This document shows positions 29,387 through 62,951 of a stretch of DNA of 64,000 bases, in pieces (the stretch's first letter is position 1; each line of letters opens with the position of its first letter). The notes below the pieces were generated by a model. It made no database searches. It worked only from the letters and a program-made list of their open reading frames with translations, and was not told the origin of the DNA. The stretch is from the IMG/VR virus record IMGVR_UViG_3300030447_000318, one strand, 5' to 3'. Position numbers and translations under genes: made by a program. The stretch is from a virus.

Positions 29387-30057
29387 TAGTTTTCACCGCC
29401 TAATAGTTCCAAAGCTACTTTATAATATTTGGTTCTCCCTTTATATTCAGAAGAACTAACTTTGCTTAACTCAAGTTTTATCTTACCAATGGTATATTGA
29501 TGAGTGATAGCATCTTCCATAACCTGAATGAATCTTATACACTGCTTTAATTTCTTATGCTTGTCTCTTATGTCATCGAGCAGGTAGCCGACTTTTGCCA
29601 TTCTATGAGCTTGTGGCTTTTTACCACCTCTATTTTCTCTGTAAGTTTGTAATGCGTGCTCAATGTCAGATTCAGCACTATCACATCTACTTAGTTCTGC
29701 TATAAGCAGATTCTTATATGTATTAAGCTGTTCCATATCCCAGCCTGCTAATCCTAGAAGATTATTTGTTTCGTTTATTATCTTATCAAGCATTGAATAA
29801 TCAAAATTACTTTCATCCATATAAACTCCATCATTACCCTTATAGTAAAGAGATAATTCTGATTCTTCGTTTTTATCTACATCAACAAGCTGATAGTTTC
29901 TTAGCCATGACAACCTTTTACCGCCTCTCTGGACTAATGACCTTGCTTGTTTATATGTAAATTGTTTTGCTTTTAATGGCGAAGTGGTTGCTAAATACTC
30001 ACCTATCTTCATAGGATTTTCCATTACATAATTTTTACCATTAGTTAAAATAAACAC
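29386..30057 (-). CDS. hypothetical protein
   Basis: 223-aa ORF. Confidence 0.45.
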   Translation of the reverse strand: MFILTNGKNYVMENPMKIGEYLATTSPLKAKQFTYKQARSLVQRGGKRLSWLRNYQLVDVDKNEESELSLYYKGNDGVYMDESNFDYSMLDKIINETNNLLGLAGWDMEQLNTYKNLLIAELSRCDSAESDIEHALQTYRENRGGKKPQAHRMAKVGYLLDDIRDKHKKLKQCIRFIQVMEDAITHQYTIGKIKLELSKVSSSEYKGRTKYYKVALELLGGEN

Positions 30058-30087
30058 TTTCTTATTCTCCTTTCTTACTGTAAATAA

Positions 30088-30160
30088 CAGGGCTAATCGG
30101 ATTCGAACCGATGAATGCAGAGATCAAAACCCTGTGCCTTACCACTTGGCGATAGCCCTA
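30088..30160 (-). tRNA. tRNA-Gln (anticodon UUG)
   Basis: Minus-strand sequence AGGGCTATCGCCAAGTGGTAAGGCACAGGGTTTTGATCTCTGCATTCATCGGTTCGAATCCGATTAGCCCTG folds as a cloverleaf. It has a 7-bp acceptor stem, U8, A14, GG in the D-loop, anticodon loop TTTTGAT (anticodon TTG) and a GGTTCGAATCC T-arm. No encoded CCA. Confidence 0.8.
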
Positions 30161-34463: not shown

Positions 34464-34801
34464 GCTGACACCCCATTAAGTTGATTTTTAATTCTAATAA
34501 CTTCATCTAAAGCACTTGTTAGAGAAGCTTCGTGCTTTTCTCTATACAACTCAACTGCTTTAACATAATTACCAACTCTGATACATTCTTCTACTGTTGG
34601 TTCAAGAATTTCTCTCTTTATACCTCTACAAGAAGCTGCGTATTGTCTTAGCGCAGCTAAATCATCACATGGAATACCCTTTTTATGGTTTACATTTGAA
34701 ATCAAACTTAACTCATAATTGGTAATAATGCCTCCATTTACCAGTTCAAAATACAAAATCTTATTCATAACTCTCATCCTTTCTATATATTTACATTGCA
34801 A
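34460..34801 (-). CDS. hypothetical protein
   Basis: 113-aa ORF. Confidence 0.4.
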   Translation of the reverse strand: MQCKYIERMRVMNKILYFELVNGGIITNYELSLISNVNHKKGIPCDDLAALRQYAASCRGIKREILEPTVEECIRVGNYVKAVELYREKHEASLTSALDEVIRIKNQLNGVSA

Positions 34802-36170
34802 TAAAGTTATCTACATCATTCTTCATCACTAAGTAATTCTCTTTTTGGTCTTTGATGTATGTATTGTTTTTATTAAAGTAATCGACGAACCAATCTTTTA
34901 ACTCAATTTCTTTTTCAAAACTGTAAGCTACAAGAGATAATAAAGATAGTCTATTTTCTTTTTCTAATAGTTTTGAGCTGTTGTCTACTTCGACAGTATA
35001 ATCGTCTAGCATTGAACTAAACAATTCCATTCTATCTTCATCTACTTCGACAGAAGTAACGTCTGTTACAAACTGTTCTATTTCTTCATTTGTATATTCT
35101 CTACTTGGTTTTGGAATTTCCTCTTGAAAGTATTCTTTCATTAACTTTTCAAGCATATCTAATTTTGCAAAGACAACCTTTTTATCTTTGCTATTCTTAT
35201 CCTTATCGTATGTATTAAAAGTTTTATCCTCATATTCTGAGAATGTTTTGTTATGTAAGTTATTCTTAAATTCTAAAAGGAAGTCATTAAATCTCGCAGC
35301 TTCTATTTTATAATCCAAGAATTTATGGAACAAACTAAAGAAAAGGAAACTATTCTTTACATTGAATAATTTACCTGTTTCTTCATCAACAATATTTGCC
35401 AACATGTCTAATTCGTTGTTCAATGTATCAAACTCTTCTTTACTTGCATTTTCATTTAAGTGTTTGAATAAAGATTTCCCTCTTGTATATTCTTCAGCAT
35501 GAAACATTATTGTTATAGCTTCATAGACAACTCTATTAAGCTTTCCGTTTTTCAATGCTGCTTCTCCATAATCTCCACAGTTTTTAAAGAAATTATTATT
35601 AATTGTATCTTTTATATATGTAGCAATATTTGACATTGGAAGAATACTCTTTTCTTCTGCGTTCATACTTGTTTGTCTATTGTATCTTGCCATATGATAT
35701 GCTATTTCTTCGTCTGTACAATCTAAATGTTTAACTACATTGATTGGATAACTGTCGAAAGCATCCTGCAATTCTTCGGGTAAATCTTTAAACCATTTAC
35801 CTCTTAAATCGTATTCAACTACTTTCATTTCTCCGTTTATACACTGTTGATAATACACAAATGGCATTTCTAAGCTCTTACTTATTCTAAAAGCACCATT
35901 TCTGTACTCTTCAAGTGCAGTCAATCTCTGCAGTCCATCAATTAGCCACAAAATAAAATCTGTTTTATTTAAGATTTGCTCACAAATTTTAAGTGAATCT
36001 AAATCTTCTCCCTTTATAATAGTAGAGACTAGACCACTTTTTGCAGTATTTTGCCAACGGTCAGCATGTCTCTGTAAAGGATGATTTTTATTTAACTGTC
36101 CTCTCTTAAACATTTTTAATAAAACTTTAACCATGTACGTATCTGTTTTTGTCTTGTCTCTACCAAGCAT
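34791..36170 (-). CDS. DUF262 (ParB/Srx-fold, GmrS-like N-terminal domain) protein
   Basis: Hallmark DGQQR-type motif present as IDGLQRLTAL. Size 459 aa. Confidence 0.5.
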   Translation of the reverse strand: MLGRDKTKTDTYMVKVLLKMFKRGQLNKNHPLQRHADRWQNTAKSGLVSTIIKGEDLDSLKICEQILNKTDFILWLIDGLQRLTALEEYRNGAFRISKSLEMPFVYYQQCINGEMKVVEYDLRGKWFKDLPEELQDAFDSYPINVVKHLDCTDEEIAYHMARYNRQTSMNAEEKSILPMSNIATYIKDTINNNFFKNCGDYGEAALKNGKLNRVVYEAITIMFHAEEYTRGKSLFKHLNENASKEEFDTLNNELDMLANIVDEETGKLFNVKNSFLFFSLFHKFLDYKIEAARFNDFLLEFKNNLHNKTFSEYEDKTFNTYDKDKNSKDKKVVFAKLDMLEKLMKEYFQEEIPKPSREYTNEEIEQFVTDVTSVEVDEDRMELFSSMLDDYTVEVDNSSKLLEKENRLSLLSLVAYSFEKEIELKDWFVDYFNKNNTYIKDQKENYLVMKNDVDNFIAM

Positions 36171-39029: not shown

Positions 39030-39815
39030 ATGCTGATTAGCGAAAAATTTGAGCTTATTAGAAAAGCGAACAATTTAACAAAAATGAAGTTCTGTGACAA
39101 AGTAGGAATGTCTCGATCTCATTACGACAGTTTACTTGCTGAAAAAAACAGCGATAAAATTATCAATAAGACTACCAATATATCTATAATCAATAGCATA
39201 TGTTATTTATTTAATGTGGATAAACAATGGTTGACTAATGATGAAAGCAATATTGATTTTTTTGATAAAAAATTTAATCAACAAATTGTTGATAATTATA
39301 TGTTGCTGTCAGAAGCAAGCAAAAATATTGTTGATAATCTTATTGATGGTTTATTGGAATTAAATAACAATCAACCGTCAACTACTCAACAGCCAGTAAT
39401 CAGATTAGCTGTATATGACCAACCAGTATGTGCTGGTAATGGTAACTTCATTACGGACGCAACAAAAACATTTAAGGATTTCCCTAATGCCCCGTCTGAT
39501 GCTGATTTCGCAGTTAGAGTTCAAGGCGATTCCATGACACCTGCTTACAACGATGGTGATTTAGTGTTTGTTAAATCTACCGACACATTGAATAACGGAG
39601 ATGACGGTATTTTTATCGTAGATGGCGATATAACGCTAAAAAGATTTATGGGTAATGAATTAATCCCATTAAATCCAAAATACTCTAAAATAAGCCAAAA
39701 AGCTATAATTCAAGGCAAAGTGGTTGGCATCGCAGAACATCACTCTGATTTAGAGGCTGAAGTTTTAGATATTGTAAACCAAGACAAGCCGCAAAACTTA
39801 AAAAAATCTATTTAA
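39030..39815 (+). CDS. cI/LexA-like repressor (N-terminal HTH plus C-terminal S24 peptidase)
   Basis: N-terminal HTH. C-terminal VRVQGDSMTPAYNDGDLVFV...LKRF (Ser/Lys dyad). Confidence 0.7.
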   Translation: MLISEKFELIRKANNLTKMKFCDKVGMSRSHYDSLLAEKNSDKIINKTTNISIINSICYLFNVDKQWLTNDESNIDFFDKKFNQQIVDNYMLLSEASKNIVDNLIDGLLELNNNQPSTTQQPVIRLAVYDQPVCAGNGNFITDATKTFKDFPNAPSDADFAVRVQGDSMTPAYNDGDLVFVKSTDTLNNGDDGIFIVDGDITLKRFMGNELIPLNPKYSKISQKAIIQGKVVGIAEHHSDLEAEVLDIVNQDKPQNLKKSI

Positions 39816-41759: not shown

Positions 41760-42719
41760 TTATACTATCCTGAGTTTATTCGCCATATTTATAGCTGTTT
41801 GATACTTATCTACATCATCAGTAAGATACCTAATAATTTTTCCTAAATCATCAGATTTTAAGGAGATAACAGGCATATTCTTGACTATTTCATCACCTTT
41901 ACCAGCCAATACATTGTGGATAAACTCACCATGGTCATCAATCAACTGTCTATTTTTCTCTTCTGTTAAACCGATGTAATTCATAGTGATTTGCAAATCT
42001 GTATGATTAAACAGTTTCTGCAATGATAACAAACAATCGGGGTCAAATGGATGTGTCTTATGAATCCAGTAACCAAAACTCTTACGAAGAGAGTGAGTGC
42101 TTACAGCGTATTGTATATTCGCTGCTTTAACTGCTTTGTTTAACTTCTTTCTGTAAACCTCTGTCTGCTGTTTTACAACATCGTTATATTCGACTACATA
42201 ATAAAGATAATCTCCAAGAGATAAGTATCTTTGCTGTTTATTAAAGTCTTTGATTATTTTCTCTTTTCTATCTTCTGATATAGTCTTATTTAACGCTTTA
42301 CACCAAAGTTCTATATCGTTTTTACTGTATATATCCAAGCCTTTTCTCTTTATCCAGTTCGTTTTAGGAATATACTCGAAGATATATTCGTTGTAATGTT
42401 TCTTTATATCAACATCTACATTCTCCAAGTATTTATCTAAGGCTTCAAATACAGTATTACTTATAGGGAGATTAGTAACTTTTCCTGTTTTTTGTTCTTC
42501 AATTGTATTTATTTCTCTTTTTCTGCTTCCGTTTTCGTAGTATATATCAGACCATTTCATCATTACTGTATCTCCAATTCTTCTACCAAGCAGGAGTTCT
42601 AACATTGTAATGAGATAACCATCCCATTCATGGTTATTTTCAAACCATTCAACTACATTTCTAATGTCTTCCATTTTCCAAAACGGATATACTTCAGTTT
42701 TCTCTTTTCTTTTTGTCAT
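41760..42719 (-). CDS. int: tyrosine site-specific integrase
   Basis: Catalytic-region motifs HSLRKSFG and ...ITMNYI (Tyr). Size 319 aa. Confidence 0.7.
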   Translation of the reverse strand: MTKRKEKTEVYPFWKMEDIRNVVEWFENNHEWDGYLITMLELLLGRRIGDTVMMKWSDIYYENGSRKREINTIEEQKTGKVTNLPISNTVFEALDKYLENVDVDIKKHYNEYIFEYIPKTNWIKRKGLDIYSKNDIELWCKALNKTISEDRKEKIIKDFNKQQRYLSLGDYLYYVVEYNDVVKQQTEVYRKKLNKAVKAANIQYAVSTHSLRKSFGYWIHKTHPFDPDCLLSLQKLFNHTDLQITMNYIGLTEEKNRQLIDDHGEFIHNVLAGKGDEIVKNMPVISLKSDDLGKIIRYLTDDVDKYQTAINMANKLRIV

Positions 42720-47021: not shown

Positions 47022-47498
47022 CTAAAAAGGAACATAATCTTCATATTTTTCATACAACTTCTCTAAGTAAGTATCACAGTCTTCTACTATTTTATCTATT
47101 ACATCACAAAATTCAGAAAACGATTCTTCTTCATATTCCCACATATCTCTACCTGTACATCTAAATACGTAATGTTTCCCTAGTTCATCGTCATTTTTAT
47201 TTTCTTCTTCTGCTTTTCTTTCCCACTCTTCTTTTTCCTCGTCTGGTAAATAATCATAATCAATCGCTAAAGGAATCCAACGACTCTCAATCAAGAACTC
47301 TGGAACTGGAAGATTTTCTTTTCCGCAGAAATCTCTGAAATTATAGTCTGAATCGCTCAAGAAAAAATCTAACGATTCAGCATGGCTACTATCGGGGAAA
47401 TATATATCATGACGATATTTAGACAGTATTCTTTTGTGACGTTTTAAAGTATCAATTAAACTTGTTTGACTTTCTGTTAACATTGTTTTGTTTTCCAT
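47022..47498 (-). CDS. acidic hypothetical protein
   Basis: 158-aa ORF, Glu/Asp-rich. Confidence 0.45.
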   Translation of the reverse strand: MENKTMLTESQTSLIDTLKRHKRILSKYRHDIYFPDSSHAESLDFFLSDSDYNFRDFCGKENLPVPEFLIESRWIPLAIDYDYLPDEEKEEWERKAEEENKNDDELGKHYVFRCTGRDMWEYEEESFSEFCDVIDKIVEDCDTYLEKLYEKYEDYVPF

Positions 47499-47549
47499 AT
47501 TTATTACCTCCTTAAAACAAACAATTTTATTAATTTTTTAAAAATGCCC

Positions 47550-47645
47550 TTGACAAAATGAAAAGTGATTTCTACTATCGTAGATGAAGAGTAGGAAAAT
47601 CCTACAATATTGCAAGACGAGGTTTATACCTCGTCTTTTTTTATT
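47550..47645 (+). CRISPR. solitary Cas12a-type repeat unit 1 (promoter -35, repeat hairpin, 28-nt segment with second hairpin, terminator)
   Basis: CTTGACAAA at 47549-47557 (ttgaca core 47550-47555). Repeat ATTTCTACTATCGTAGAT at 47568-47585 (stem TCTAC/GTAGA). Terminator gacgagg-tttata-cctcgtc followed by T7 at 47615-47643. The -10 position is ambiguous for this copy. Confidence 0.5.
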
Positions 47646-47691
47646 CATAATCATAACAAAATTTTGTCAGGGTGTGAACCACACCCTATTA

Positions 47692-48033
47692 TCAAGCTAA
47701 GCAATTAACTATTGAATAATATTCTTTTCTTTCTACCATCATTATTACAACTTTTGCATTTTTATCATCATACCATTCCTCAAAATCGGCAAACCCATCA
47801 TTAGCCATTATAGAGAAGGAATAATCTTTTTCATCCATAATTTGATAATTTGCGACTTCTAAATTATTAAATAATTGTTTTGGGATGTCATCTTCGGTTA
47901 TTTCTTTAATTTTGTCTTGATGTATGTCATACACAGAATAATGTTCATCTTTTGGTATATATATCTTAAAATCAACAATGGTTTCATTTTTATTTTTCTC
48001 TAATATTTTATTATAAAGTTCTAAAATTTTCAT
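47692..48033 (-). CDS. hypothetical protein
   Basis: 113-aa ORF. Confidence 0.45.
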   Translation of the reverse strand: MKILELYNKILEKNKNETIVDFKIYIPKDEHYSVYDIHQDKIKEITEDDIPKQLFNNLEVANYQIMDEKDYSFSIMANDGFADFEEWYDDKNAKVVIMMVERKEYYSIVNCLA

Positions 48034-48070
48034 ATTTCTACCTCCGCCCTCATTAACAAAAATAATATTC

Positions 48071-48493
48071 CTAAAAACTTAAATAAACTTCTGAGTCATC
48101 TTCATCGTATTGGTTCATAGCGTCTACAGCATCAGCCATATTATCGTAAGTTCCTAAAGTCTTATAAGACGGTGTTTCTATAAGACTAATATAAATCTTT
48201 GAATAATCAGAGATTTCTCCTCCAGAAACCCACTCACCATCTTCATCATATTCATTTTCTTCCAGATAATATTCATCTACGAGATAATATGTTCCTTTTG
48301 CACCAGATAATTCAGATATACTCGTTTTGTGTTCATTTAATCTTTTTTTAGCTCTATCTTCCTCATTTTCATTGAAACTTTCAATTAATTCTGAAACTTG
48401 ATCATCATTTAAAAGAGTGACACCCTCTTTTATTTCTTTTCTATCTCTATATGGGATTTCTATACTTGCTTTTCTAAGTTCTATTTTTTTCAT
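48071..48493 (-). CDS. acidic hypothetical protein (start MKKIELRK with RBS gaggagg)
   Basis: The longest-ORF start is a TTG. The ATG at about 48493 has a perfect SD. Confidence 0.45.
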   Translation of the reverse strand: MKKIELRKASIEIPYRDRKEIKEGVTLLNDDQVSELIESFNENEEDRAKKRLNEHKTSISELSGAKGTYYLVDEYYLEENEYDEDGEWVSGGEISDYSKIYISLIETPSYKTLGTYDNMADAVDAMNQYDEDDSEVYLSF

Positions 48494-48525
48494 ATCACTT
48501 ACCTCCTCAAAAATAAAAAACTTTC

Positions 48526-48643
48526 TTGACAAATTAAATATTATGTAATATAATATGCAATGTAATTTCTACTATAGTAGATAAAAAACATATTACAACA
48601 GGTTAGAGAGACGGGATTTTGCATCCGTCTCTCTTTTATTTGC
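48526..48643 (+). CRISPR. solitary Cas12a-type repeat unit 2 (TTGACA-17-TATAAT promoter, repeat TAATTTCTACTATAGTAGAT, 23-nt spacer-like segment, terminator)
   Basis: -35 at 48526-48531. -10 at 48549-48554. Repeat at 48563-48582. 23-nt segment aaaaaacatattacaacaggtta at 48583-48605. Terminator gagagacgg...ccgtctctc plus T-run at 48606-48640. Confidence 0.6.
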
Positions 48644-48650
48644 TCTAATT

Positions 48651-48923
48651 TTAAGCCCAAACATCAGTTACTTTATACCCAATTAAAAATCCATTGTTGT
48701 TATATAATTTTTCGACCTGTACAGATATTACTGTAGCATCCTTACTATTTACATAGCATTGCCACACCTGTCCATCTTCACCAATAATTACTTCTCCGTT
48801 AGAGGATGAGTCGGTTTCGAAGTCTTCAAAACCACAAATAATCTCCTCTGCAAGCTCTTGTTCCTCGTATTCCTTACCTACTAACTTTCTCAAATTTTCC
48901 ATAACTTGTTCTAAAGTAGTCAT
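48651..48923 (-). CDS. hypothetical protein
   Basis: 90-aa ORF. Confidence 0.45.
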   Translation of the reverse strand: MTTLEQVMENLRKLVGKEYEEQELAEEIICGFEDFETDSSSNGEVIIGEDGQVWQCYVNSKDATVISVQVEKLYNNNGFLIGYKVTDVWA

Positions 48924-48989
48924 ATTACTTGCCTCCTCAAATCTAATAATTTTTCTCTCTTTCTAAGTATATTTTGAAAAATTTTATAC

Positions 48990-49145
48990 TTGACAAACTA
49001 AATATATTATGTATAATAAATATTGTAACACAACTTGTGTTGCTGATTTCTACTTAGCGTAGATGAAATGCCCACATAGTGTATTGGTAGTAAATGTTGG
49101 GCGACAGAGGGCGTAGTATCCAGATTGGCTACGCCCATTTTTATT
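48990..49145 (+). CRISPR. solitary Cas12a-type repeat unit 3 (TTGACA-16-TATAAT promoter, repeat ATTTCTACTTAGCGTAGAT with Lb-like 5-nt loop, ~44-nt segment, terminator)
   Basis: -35 at 48990-48995. -10 at 49012-49017. Repeat at 49046-49064. Terminator gggcgtag...ctacgccc plus ATTTTTATT at 49109-49145. Confidence 0.55.
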
Positions 49146-49148
49146 GTT

Positions 49149-49568
49149 TTACTCTATTGCGTCTCTAAGAATTTGAATAAAATTCTCGATGTTTTTTACA
49201 TTTTCTTTATCCATTTTTTTACCCCATTCTTCGACCTTTGGAAGACGTATCCAGTCTTCATAATCATAGTCATCAGGAGAAACTGGGCAATCGAAAATTT
49301 CGCATAAATATTTTCCATCATACCCAAGGTTGTGTTCCATATTAGAATATATATGAGGATAAATGTCTATAACGTCTACTGAGTTTGGAACTATAAAATC
49401 ATAGTCTCCTACACAATATTCATCTAAGATACTGCCTATTTCTTCATATATCTCATTCTCATAATGTGTTGACAAAAAATCTATATAGCTAACAGATGAA
49501 CTTAATTCTATAATGTCTTTTTCGATTTTATCAATTTGTGTTAAACTTAAATTATATTTATTTTTCAT
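49149..49568 (-). CDS. hypothetical protein
   Basis: 139-aa ORF. Confidence 0.45.
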   Translation of the reverse strand: MKNKYNLSLTQIDKIEKDIIELSSSVSYIDFLSTHYENEIYEEIGSILDEYCVGDYDFIVPNSVDVIDIYPHIYSNMEHNLGYDGKYLCEIFDCPVSPDDYDYEDWIRLPKVEEWGKKMDKENVKNIENFIQILRDAIE

Positions 49569-49587
49569 AATTTTACCTCCGATTAAT

Positions 49588-50052
49588 CTATAATTTTATT
49601 TGTGATAACTTCATAAAACTCATTACCCTTCGCCATAGTAATCCAATTACCTTTTTTAGCCCTGACAATGCTTTTTCACCGTAGCAAGAAATCATTGAAC
49701 CAACACCATAACATTCTATAGCAGCAACCTCTCCTTGAGAACATACTCTTGTGTTATTAGCATATATATTCACTTTTATATTACGACAGTTTCCACTACT
49801 ATTAATGTTTACTTTACTGTTATTTCCGAATATATTAATTGTCGCACCATCTGAGTCTATGTTCACTACAGTGTTACCGTAAATATTAATTGTGTCATTA
49901 AGACCGTTAAATATAATTAATAATTTTCTCTTTTCCTGAATTCTTCTTCTAAATCCCTACTTCTTTGTTCAGATGCTTTTCTATCTAACAATGATGGAAT
50001 ACCAAATACTACAAACAAAGCGATAGCACAACTAATTAAATCTACGAACATA
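49588..50052 (-). CDS. membrane-anchored beta-repeat protein, apparently split by a -1 frame change (44-aa TM ORF plus NI..G.N..V repeat ORF)
   Basis: TM ORF MFVDLISCAIALFVVFGIPSLL... ends at about 49919. An overlapping frame continues KLLIIFNGLNDTINIYGNTVVNIDSDGATINIFGNNSKVNINSSGN... with no ATG. The junction is at caggaaaagagaaaatt. Confidence 0.3.
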
Positions 50053-62585: not shown

Positions 62586-62738
62586 AATTGCCTCCTTATG
62601 TGAGAGTCCTCACCCCAAATATTTTTATACGCATTTGGGTTGCGTTTATTATGTATGGATATTAGTTTCCCTTTATGTAAAGGTACTTACGGCGAGAACC
62701 ACGAGAAGGTTTCCAACACTCCCACCATAAGGCAAAAA

Positions 62739-62951
62739 TTAATTTGCCTTTTCATCATCTTCATCTTCTGTGTGACGGCGTAATGATACGCCTTTTTTGT
62801 TGATGATTACATCGTATTCACCATCACAAAAGTCCTTCATTAGACCTTCTGTAATGATAGATAGAGGTAAACCATAACTGTTTTTACAACAGTCTTTGAA
62901 TTCTTCAAAAAGCGTTTCTTCTAGGCTTATGTTTACATTTTTTGTTGCCAA
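62739..62951 (-). CDS. hypothetical protein
   Basis: 70-aa ORF. Confidence 0.4.
   Translation of the reverse strand: MATKNVNISLEETLFEEFKDCCKNSYGLPLSIITEGLMKDFCDGEYDVIINKKGVSLRRHTEDEDDEKAN

Follow-up and report, generated by a model that had tools for sequence, protein, structure and literature searches.

The 64,000-nt stretch of viral DNA analysed in this study (IMG/VR virus record IMGVR_UViG_3300030447_000318; hereafter the window) contains three small stand-alone units, named U1 (47550-47644), U2 (48526-48641) and U3 (48990-49142), whose central motif resembles the 5' handle of Cas12a (type V-A) CRISPR RNAs (crRNAs). An earlier examination of the DNA without database searches (the sequence-only reading) had reported three such plus-strand units within 1.6 kb, and the letters that it quoted were confirmed. 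All three units have a common form, namely (A/G)ATTTCTAC-loop-GTAGAT, followed by a spacer-like segment (psiS) of 22-44 nt and an intrinsic terminator. The core TCTACT-N3-6-GTAGA occurs at 3 distinct plus-strand sites in 64 kb, compared with 0.09 expected, a count equalled in 0 of 100 shuffles. The parts of the units, whose handles were compared with a consensus of 51 V-A arrays (see below), are the following:

47550-47555, plus strand: U1 -35 box TTGACA; the partner -10 box is absent
47567-47585, plus strand: U1 handle GATTTCTACTATCGTAGAT, i.e. GATTTCTAC-TATC-GTAGAT; Cas12a-type 5' handle, fits the 51-array consensus
47586-47613, plus strand: psiS1, 28 nt; conserved hairpin GTAGG-AAAAT-CCTAC at 47591-47605 (fold)
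47614-47644, plus strand: U1 intrinsic terminator AAGACGAGG-TTTATA-CCTCGTCTT plus T-run; hairpin at 47614-47637
48526-48554, plus strand: U2 promoter TTGACA-17-TATAAT; 12/12 versus the sigma-70 consensus
48563-48582, plus strand: U2 handle TAATTTCTACTATAGTAGAT, i.e. TAATTTCTAC-TATA-GTAGAT; Cas12a-type 5' handle, fits the 51-array consensus
48583-48604, plus strand: psiS2 AAAAAACATATTACAACAGGTT, 22 nt; unstructured and guide-like (fold and allele comparison)
48605-48641, plus strand: U2 intrinsic terminator; hairpin at 48605-48634, two alleles
48990-49017, plus strand: U3 promoter TTGACA-16-TATAAT; 12/12 versus the sigma-70 consensus
49025-49043, plus strand: U3 5'-terminal leader hairpin GTAACACAA-CTT-GTGTTGC, 19 nt (fold); directly before the handle
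49045-49064, plus strand: U3 handle GATTTCTACTTAGCGTAGAT, i.e. GATTTCTAC-TTAGC-GTAGAT, with a 5-nt loop; Cas12a-type, fits the 51-array consensus
49065-49108, plus strand: psiS3, 44 nt; weak long-range stem CCCACAT/ATGTTGGG
49109-49142, plus strand: U3 intrinsic terminator GGGCGTAG...CTACGCCC plus T-run; hairpin at 49109-49136

The order of handle, spacer-like segment and plus-strand terminator proposed in the sequence-only reading therefore holds for all three units. The promoter that it had placed before each repeat is complete in U2 and U3, but in U1 only the -35 region, CTTGACAAA, which is common to the three units, has been retained. The first bases (seeds) of the three psiS segments are AAAAAACATATT..., GAAATGCCCA... 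and GAAGAGTAGG.... Folding, a check suggested in the same reading, produced a handle hairpin and a terminator hairpin in each unit, with z-scores from -2.7 to -4.4. The predicted start of U2 lies at 48560-48562, i.e. 1-4 nt upstream of the handle, and the predicted primary transcript would therefore be nearly pre-processed. That of U3 lies at approx. 49025; the leader hairpin of this unit would be removed by Cas12a processing and may protect the 5' end. An analogous leader hairpin is present in the U1 allele of one related contig (L001). There are six plus-strand terminator-like sites in the whole 64 kb, three of which belong to U1-U3, and U2 and U3 are the sole plus-strand promoter-to-terminator pairs in the window, the other genes of which are nearly all located on the minus strand.

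A search of the window for further, diverged handle copies (up to 3 mismatches allowed) produced only chance-level matches. One candidate, AGTTCTGCTATAAGCAGAT (29693-29711, plus strand), is handle-like and carries a compensatory stem change (TCTGC/GCAGA), but it lies in coding DNA, without a promoter or terminator, and was rejected as a chance match. At 62586-62800, a non-coding gap of approx. 150 nt is followed by a plus-strand terminator-like hairpin, GGCGTAATGATACGCC, with a T-run (62777-62800); neither a handle nor an Rfam match was found there.

The only well-spaced -10-like hexamer of U1, TACTAT (47573-47578; 10/12), is located inside the handle, which places the start at approx. 47585, at or after the handle 3' end. 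Relatives carry U1 with an intact TTGACA-17-TATAAT promoter, in two cases (contigs L194 and L208) with a psiS1 identical at 27 of 28 positions and in two others (L001 and L002) together with a leader hairpin. The U1 allele of the window, which is approx. 19 nt shorter than that of L194, is therefore a deletion derivative. Even so, this allele, in which the -10 box is lost, is the one commonly found in the lineage. A handle-bearing RNA is probably not produced from the U1 of the window.

The handle consensus was derived from 51 genuine V-A arrays gathered in this analysis. Upstream of TCTAC, these have A at position -3 in every case (51/51; a base not forced by the search pattern) and A (46/51) or G (5/51) at position -4, while GTAGA is followed by T in 51/51. 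The loop comprises 4 nt in 50 of the arrays and 5 nt in one, the sequence TATT being present in 14. The V-A handle pattern may be written as ATTTCTACT(N3-4)GTAGAT. U1 (GATT...), U2 (AATT...) and U3 (GATT...) agree with every invariant position of the 51 arrays. Their loops (TATC, TATA and TTAGC), which include both the 4-nt and the 5-nt variants announced in the sequence-only reading, each begin with T, and none of the three occurs among the arrays. Judged by its sequence, the motif is the Cas12a crRNA 5' handle, and the earlier assignment to the 3' portion of a Cas12a repeat is upheld. The upstream halves of the units are unrelated to each other. In agreement with the claim that neither cas genes nor a multi-repeat array are present, no array of approx. 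36-nt direct repeats with spacers was found (there is one handle per unit), and the 64-kb window, part of a prophage of approx. 135 kb, contains no cas12a-sized open reading frame (ORF), the largest ORF being that of a 1078-aa DnaE. Rfam searches, both at the gathering threshold and at E<=10, revealed no relevant family for the units.

Comparison of the alleles present in relatives appears to show selection acting on RNA features. Among U1 alleles, none of the 38 stem columns (handle, psiS1 hairpin and terminator) varies, versus 13 of 37 loop and linker columns (p=3e-5), and a 3-nt indel lies between the handle and the psiS1 hairpin, by which any guide register would be shifted. We therefore regard psiS1 as a structural hairpin and not a guide. 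A different pattern is seen in U2, where psiS2 varies in 0/22 columns versus 7/19 of the other non-stem columns (p=0.002). This segment is unstructured yet invariant, which indicates a sequence-level constraint and makes it guide-like. The U2 terminator has a single stem change (A>G) that keeps pairing as G.U, and a TATT loop allele of the U2 handle exists in relatives. psiS3 shows no change over its first 10 nt; at positions 11-12, CA is replaced by TG in one allele, with the weak internal stem kept by wobble.

The units reside in an island that is partly or wholly missing in relatives 96-99% identical to the window, so that 0, 1, 2 or 3 units may be present:

47097-49916: hypervariable accessory island; the three units are interleaved with orphan small acidic minus-strand ORFs
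L001 and L002: 96-98% identity to the window; U1 homolog only
L010: 99% identity to the window; no units, 47097-49262 being absent
Ten contigs with an identical 140-aa neighbour protein: U1 and U2 in 10/10, U3 in 6/10
L138, 2940-3090: chimera composed of the U1 upstream region (-35 mutated to TTAACA), a TATT-loop handle, psiS2 (22/22) and the U2 terminator

The chimera indicates that the units recombine at their handles. The ORFs of the island belong to no Pfam or PHROG family, and no gene resembling those of anti-CRISPR proteins (Acr) was recognised among them. In two further contigs, L250 (8154-8423) and L247 (7187-8119), the usual small ORFs are replaced by a gene for an IS605-type TnpB (OrfB_IS605 / Cas12f1-like_TNB) or by an HTH_26-Fic gene, variants which underline the accessory and fast-changing nature of this region. 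In its variability, with 0-3 units in close relatives and a chimera, the island behaves like an accessory anti-defence locus.

The sequence-only reading had taken the units for solitary elements carried by a phage. They are indeed solitary and located on a mobile element, but the carrier is a temperate prophage of a gut Lachnospiraceae bacterium. The window encodes DnaE, RecJ, DnaB, a Sak4-like protein and a replication initiator, as well as the following genes:

39030-39815, plus strand: CI/LexA-like S24 repressor; sole plus-strand protein gene in the window
41760-42719, minus strand: tyrosine integrase; forms a lysogeny module with the repressor

The presence of this module shows that the element is temperate and, since the repressor gene is the sole protein gene on the plus strand, the units share the lysogeny orientation. 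The window has no DNA similarity to known phages; among cultured relatives, two large clostridial phages, phiCD211 and c-st, come nearest (approx. 43% identity in DnaE). Exact copies of the prophage proteins occur on contigs of 0.25-1.0 Mb and in two NCBI assemblies (GCA_027680745.1 and GCA_046885585.1), from which we conclude that this is a widespread integrated prophage. In the assembly collection, 312 blocks list a marker protein that adjoins the units. The DnaB falls into a cluster of at least 90% identity with RefSeq WP_270466989.1 of Butyribacter intestini (Lachnospiraceae), the species harbouring the closest named relative of the element, and a metagenome-assembled genome of the same phage has been deposited in GenBank as 'Siphoviridae sp. 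ctXZx16'. A 459-aa ORF of the window (34791-36170, minus strand) has close homologs carrying the annotation DUF262, which denotes a domain of GmrSD-type type IV restriction enzymes; it may be a prophage-borne defence gene. A tRNA-Gln (anticodon TTG; 30087-30160, minus strand) is also phage-encoded.

The same design was found well beyond this lineage. A scan of viral contigs for 15 specified bases of the handle identified at least 120 loci; all of the listed matches are solitary and approx. one quarter have the handle-psiS-terminator layout. Many viral contigs that are unrelated thus share the stand-alone architecture. Exact searches with 24-25 nt of the units produced no matches in viral contigs. 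A large subfamily has a more complex order, with a type I-C-like repeat (e.g. GTCAACCCTATCAAGGGTTGTGGATTGAAAC) and a GCTC-loop-GAGC mini-hairpin upstream of the V-A handle, and a hairpin psiS and a GC-rich terminator after it. It is represented in viral contigs (L179-L193, L068, L074, L097, L098, L113, L125, L127, L159, L169, L177 and others) and in metagenome contigs (L200, L206, L207, L221, L234, L239 and L241). The inner pairs of its psiS hairpin covary (A-T/T-A, C-G/C-G, T-A/T-A), as read directly from the sequences and not scored formally, the MAFFT alignment being mis-registered. These elements look like dual decoy RNAs, of the I-C and the V-A kind, produced from one transcript. The recurrence of a handle, a hairpin and a terminator in viruses is consistent with decoys. 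Two other viral loci (L059, 6283-6400, and L105, minus strand, at approx. 1387) contain a promoter, a handle, a psiS starting with TAGTTTTT and a terminator; their handle loops (TGTG or TATG) end in G, like the loop TTTG of the Ruminococcus bromii element described below. They may be Ruminococcus-directed units of the Cracr type (see below); their seed differs from the one in the R. bromii element.

Several searches were performed for sequences that the psiS segments might recognise. The sequence-only reading had suggested looking for matches flanked by a TTTV protospacer-adjacent motif (PAM), and none was encountered. There are no self-targets of psiS1-3 in the window, no protospacers in INPHARED or PLSDB (all matches with E>=3), none in IMG/VR for psiS2 (19 nt) and psiS3 (17 nt), and no PAM-flanked match with up to 4 mismatches in 2.1 Mb of collected loci. 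Scans combining the handle with the merged seeds gave 47 matches in genome contigs and 49 in metagenome contigs, which were only chance-level matches or further phage copies. The best matches of V-A spacers to the phage (20/21 and 21/22) were rejected, as a TTTV PAM is missing and the alignments do not begin at position 1. In one contig (L227, minus strand, at approx. 2367) a genuine human-gut V-A array includes a spacer, GAAATGCCTACCTATTGTAA..., identical to the start of psiS3 at 16 of 20 positions. Nine of its first ten positions were matched by design (eight forced and one with a chance of 1 in 3), and with approx. 150 comparisons the similarity is within chance.

Among gut Clostridia, Lachnospiraceae included, there are Cas12a arrays that have this handle. 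The abundant gut Cas12a used as a homology query was that of R. bromii, whose Cas12a cluster comprises 4863 member sequences. In the V-A locus of this species (L224, 814-895), a stand-alone handle, TAATTTCTACTTTGGTAGAT, precedes the cas12a start codon by 60 nt. The psiS of this element, TATTAGTTT..., finds a 9-nt match to its seed, flanked by TTTA, approx. 50 nt upstream, on the other strand, within its own promoter region. As read from the DNA, this is the textbook arrangement of autoregulation of the CreR type. The identification of this seed match indicates that the target method works where the host locus is at hand.

The architecture described here has already been published, including an experimentally characterised example, and the use of RNA as an anti-CRISPR was first described in 2023-2024. 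Viral solitary repeat units (SRUs) act as RNA anti-CRISPRs (Racrs), which bind Cas proteins in the form of small RNAs and inhibit immunity (Camara-Wilpert et al., Nature 2023, PMC10651486); these include three V-A Racrs, RacrVA1-3, which inhibit MbCas12a, and Racrs often sit in accessory or anti-defence regions (PMC10651486). Like Racrs, the units are solitary repeat mimics borne by viruses or prophages outside a CRISPR-cas locus. The V-A SRUs of that publication are near full-length repeats of 33-36 nt, 91-100% identical to array repeats (PMC10651486), whereas our units retain only the 3' 19-20 nt of the repeat, and a pipeline based on full-repeat BLAST would therefore probably miss them. The accessible part of the Racr supplementary tables does not contain the metagenome identifiers of the relatives of the window. 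Moreover, Racrs are defined as lacking a functional spacer, while U2 and U3 have sequence-conserved spacer-like segments; and where Racrs are co-located with acr genes, the neighbours of the units are orphan small acidic ORFs with no recognisable acr.

The closest counterpart is CracrVA1, a type V-A Cas-repressing RNA anti-CRISPR (Liu et al., bioRxiv 10.1101/2024.10.29.618823) from an uncultured phage; in it, a single repeat-like part (psiR) and a psiS are followed by a rho-independent terminator. Its RNA is processed by Cas12a to 19+21 nt, competes with crRNAs and blocks Cas12a immunity; 10 consecutive PAM-proximal nt of its psiS match the cas12a promoter of Ruminococcus sp. C020_28, which it represses, and it resembles the host CreR (bioRxiv 10.1101/2024.10.29.618823). 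CreR elements upstream of cas12a are common in hosts (bioRxiv 10.1101/2023.03.10.532045; 10.1101/2023.03.03.530964). CracrVA1, like U2 and U3, is phage-carried and has a single handle of approx. 19-20 nt, a rho-independent terminator and its own promoter (in the case of U1, this applies only to the relatives with an intact promoter). Its spacer-like segment is approx. 21-22 nt long and psiS2 is 22 nt, so that U2 would mature to approx. 41 nt versus 40 nt for CracrVA1, which was compared by its description and not by its sequence. Unlike in CracrVA1, neither a match to a cas12a promoter nor a CreR counterpart was found for psiS1-3 in the loci and collections searched; further differences are the Lachnospiraceae host, the handle-only psiR, and the grouping of three monocistronic units, including one whose psiS is a hairpin, within a single island. 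As no stretch of 9 or more PAM-proximal nt was found in common with the psiS of a host CreR, membership of the Cracr group proper is not established; that the units belong to the wider class of viral mimics of Cas12a crRNAs is well supported. The host CreR has the same design of handle plus psiS, but it sits inside the host V-A locus and autoregulates cas12a, while the units lie in a prophage island, with no cas gene in the window and no identified target. Finally, the mini-arrays of viruses and prophages, involved in inter-virus conflict, are likewise devoid of cas genes and reliant on host Cas proteins, but they have at least two repeats and spacers matching other viruses, whereas each transcript of the units would have a single handle and no detectable protospacers.

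Taking these data together, we consider it likely that the units encode monocistronic crRNA-like small RNAs of the type V-A kind, which load host Cas12a and thereby blunt or redirect it. From the directly observed handle identity, promoter and terminator architecture, selection pattern, modular variability and prophage context, we infer expression of the units, loading of Cas12a and an inhibitory outcome. The host sigma-70 RNA polymerase would transcribe U2 (approx. 80 nt) and U3 (approx. 120 nt), stopping at the intrinsic terminators. Host Cas12a would recognise the authentic pseudoknot handle, (A/G)AUUUCUAC-loop-GUAGAU, trim off the short leader from U2 or the 5' leader hairpin from U3, and become loaded with a phage-supplied pseudo-guide in place of an immune crRNA. 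The primary effect would be that of an anti-CRISPR acting through competition for Cas12a, as in the case of Racrs. In addition, psiS2 (perhaps also psiS3) probably directs cleavage-free binding at a partly complementary host site, comparable with the action of CracrVA1 on the cas12a promoter. Units of the U1 type, with their hairpin psiS, would be pure decoys, the copy in the window probably being promoter-crippled.

The sequence-only reading had proposed the same two roles, an RNA anti-CRISPR or hijacking of Cas12a. In view of the agreement with the V-A Racr and CracrVA1 precedents, one or other of these is the best available explanation; the function of the units is putative, no target or PAM-flanked match having been found. 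Several observations weigh against our proposal. There is no -10 box upstream of the U1 handle. The alignment to V-A repeats foreseen in the sequence-only reading succeeded for the 3' 19-20 nt, which fit real array repeats, but the 5' half is not repeat-like, being replaced by a promoter or leader. The allele statistics were obtained from few, related sequences. No CreR or array spacer with a 9-10 nt psiS seed behind the handle was found in 185k species genomes and a metagenome collection, and no enrichment of TTTV plus seed was detected in 96 V-A loci, among which the locus of the true host is not included. Comparison of 1498 sampled V-A spacers with this phage revealed no genuine targeting, and no Cas12a with a Butyribacter name emerged from the literature, from a homology search with Cas12a or from the names of clusters.

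Cas12a needs only the upstream repeat, and a single handle with a spacer thus constitutes a complete guide. The units might accordingly be viewed as genuine orphan guides and not inhibitors, arming the Cas12a of the lysogen against competing phages and plasmids (superinfection exclusion) or against a host locus. With this would agree the natural guide length (22 nt) of psiS2, its lack of structure and its invariance amid variable flanks, the location of the units on the strand of the CI-like repressor, i.e. in lysogeny orientation, and the existence of viral mini-arrays that target other viruses. We nevertheless think it unlikely, given that the database and window searches described above revealed no protospacer, that the 2.1 Mb of loci contained no PAM-flanked match, and that psiS1 is a structural hairpin whose register is shifted by an indel.

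A related view, to which we attach a similarly low probability, would see psiS2, and possibly psiS3, in view of the sequence-level constraint, as a true functional guide in a form of 'guide-only parasitism', by which the prophage would reprogram host Cas12a (or Cas12a2) using lysogeny-oriented, monocistronic and nearly pre-processed transcripts. Their target would lie outside the cas12a promoter and the known CreR sites, for example in a host gene or another defence system, and the U1-like units with a hairpin spacer, together with the large covarying viral family, would form a distinct class of structured-spacer decoys.

It is more doubtful still that the units are decaying remnants of a former phage-borne V-A mini-array or of captured host repeats, with no present function. 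Loss of the U1 -10 box, the frequent absence of units from close relatives and the retention of only the 3' half of the repeat could all be read in this way, but decay does not account for the perfect consensus promoters and strong terminators of U2 and U3, the invariance of stems relative to loops and linkers (p=3e-5), the sole terminator stem change, which keeps pairing, or the fact that many viral lineages that are unrelated have given rise to this architecture.

Finally, TCTAC-N4-5-GTAGA might serve a phage regulator as a DNA operator, or form a generic small-RNA or attenuator hairpin unrelated to Cas12a (a generic attenuator motif had been allowed for in the sequence-only reading). Although the core inverted repeat lies at or just downstream of strong promoters and the 14-bp core of U2 is a perfect palindrome, this is very improbable. 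The flanks are conserved but unlike each other, ATT preceding the stem and T following it; this asymmetry argues against a simple palindromic operator, and the flanks reproduce the exact Cas12a handle. The position relative to the promoter differs between units, the motif overlapping the -10 region in one and lying at +4 or +21 in the others. No Rfam family matches, and the identical 18-nt motif is found both solitary with a terminator in unrelated viral contigs and at the 3' end of the repeats of real arrays.

If our proposal of Cas12a-loading crRNA mimics is true, a very prevalent human-gut prophage disarms or redirects Cas12a by means of only 80-120 nt of DNA per unit. This would add a Lachnospiraceae example to the Racr/Cracr class, which has been documented mainly in Moraxella and Ruminococcus, and would mean that minimal, handle-only units exist that are missed by repeat-BLAST pipelines tuned to full-length repeats. 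With its intact and promoter-deleted alleles, a chimera, and both structural and guide-like spacers, the locus provides natural material for dissecting inhibitory crRNA mimicry. Nearly pre-processed cassettes composed of a promoter, a handle, a guide and a terminator may also serve as compact designs for Cas12a guide expression, and would be relevant to the design of CRISPR-resistant phages.

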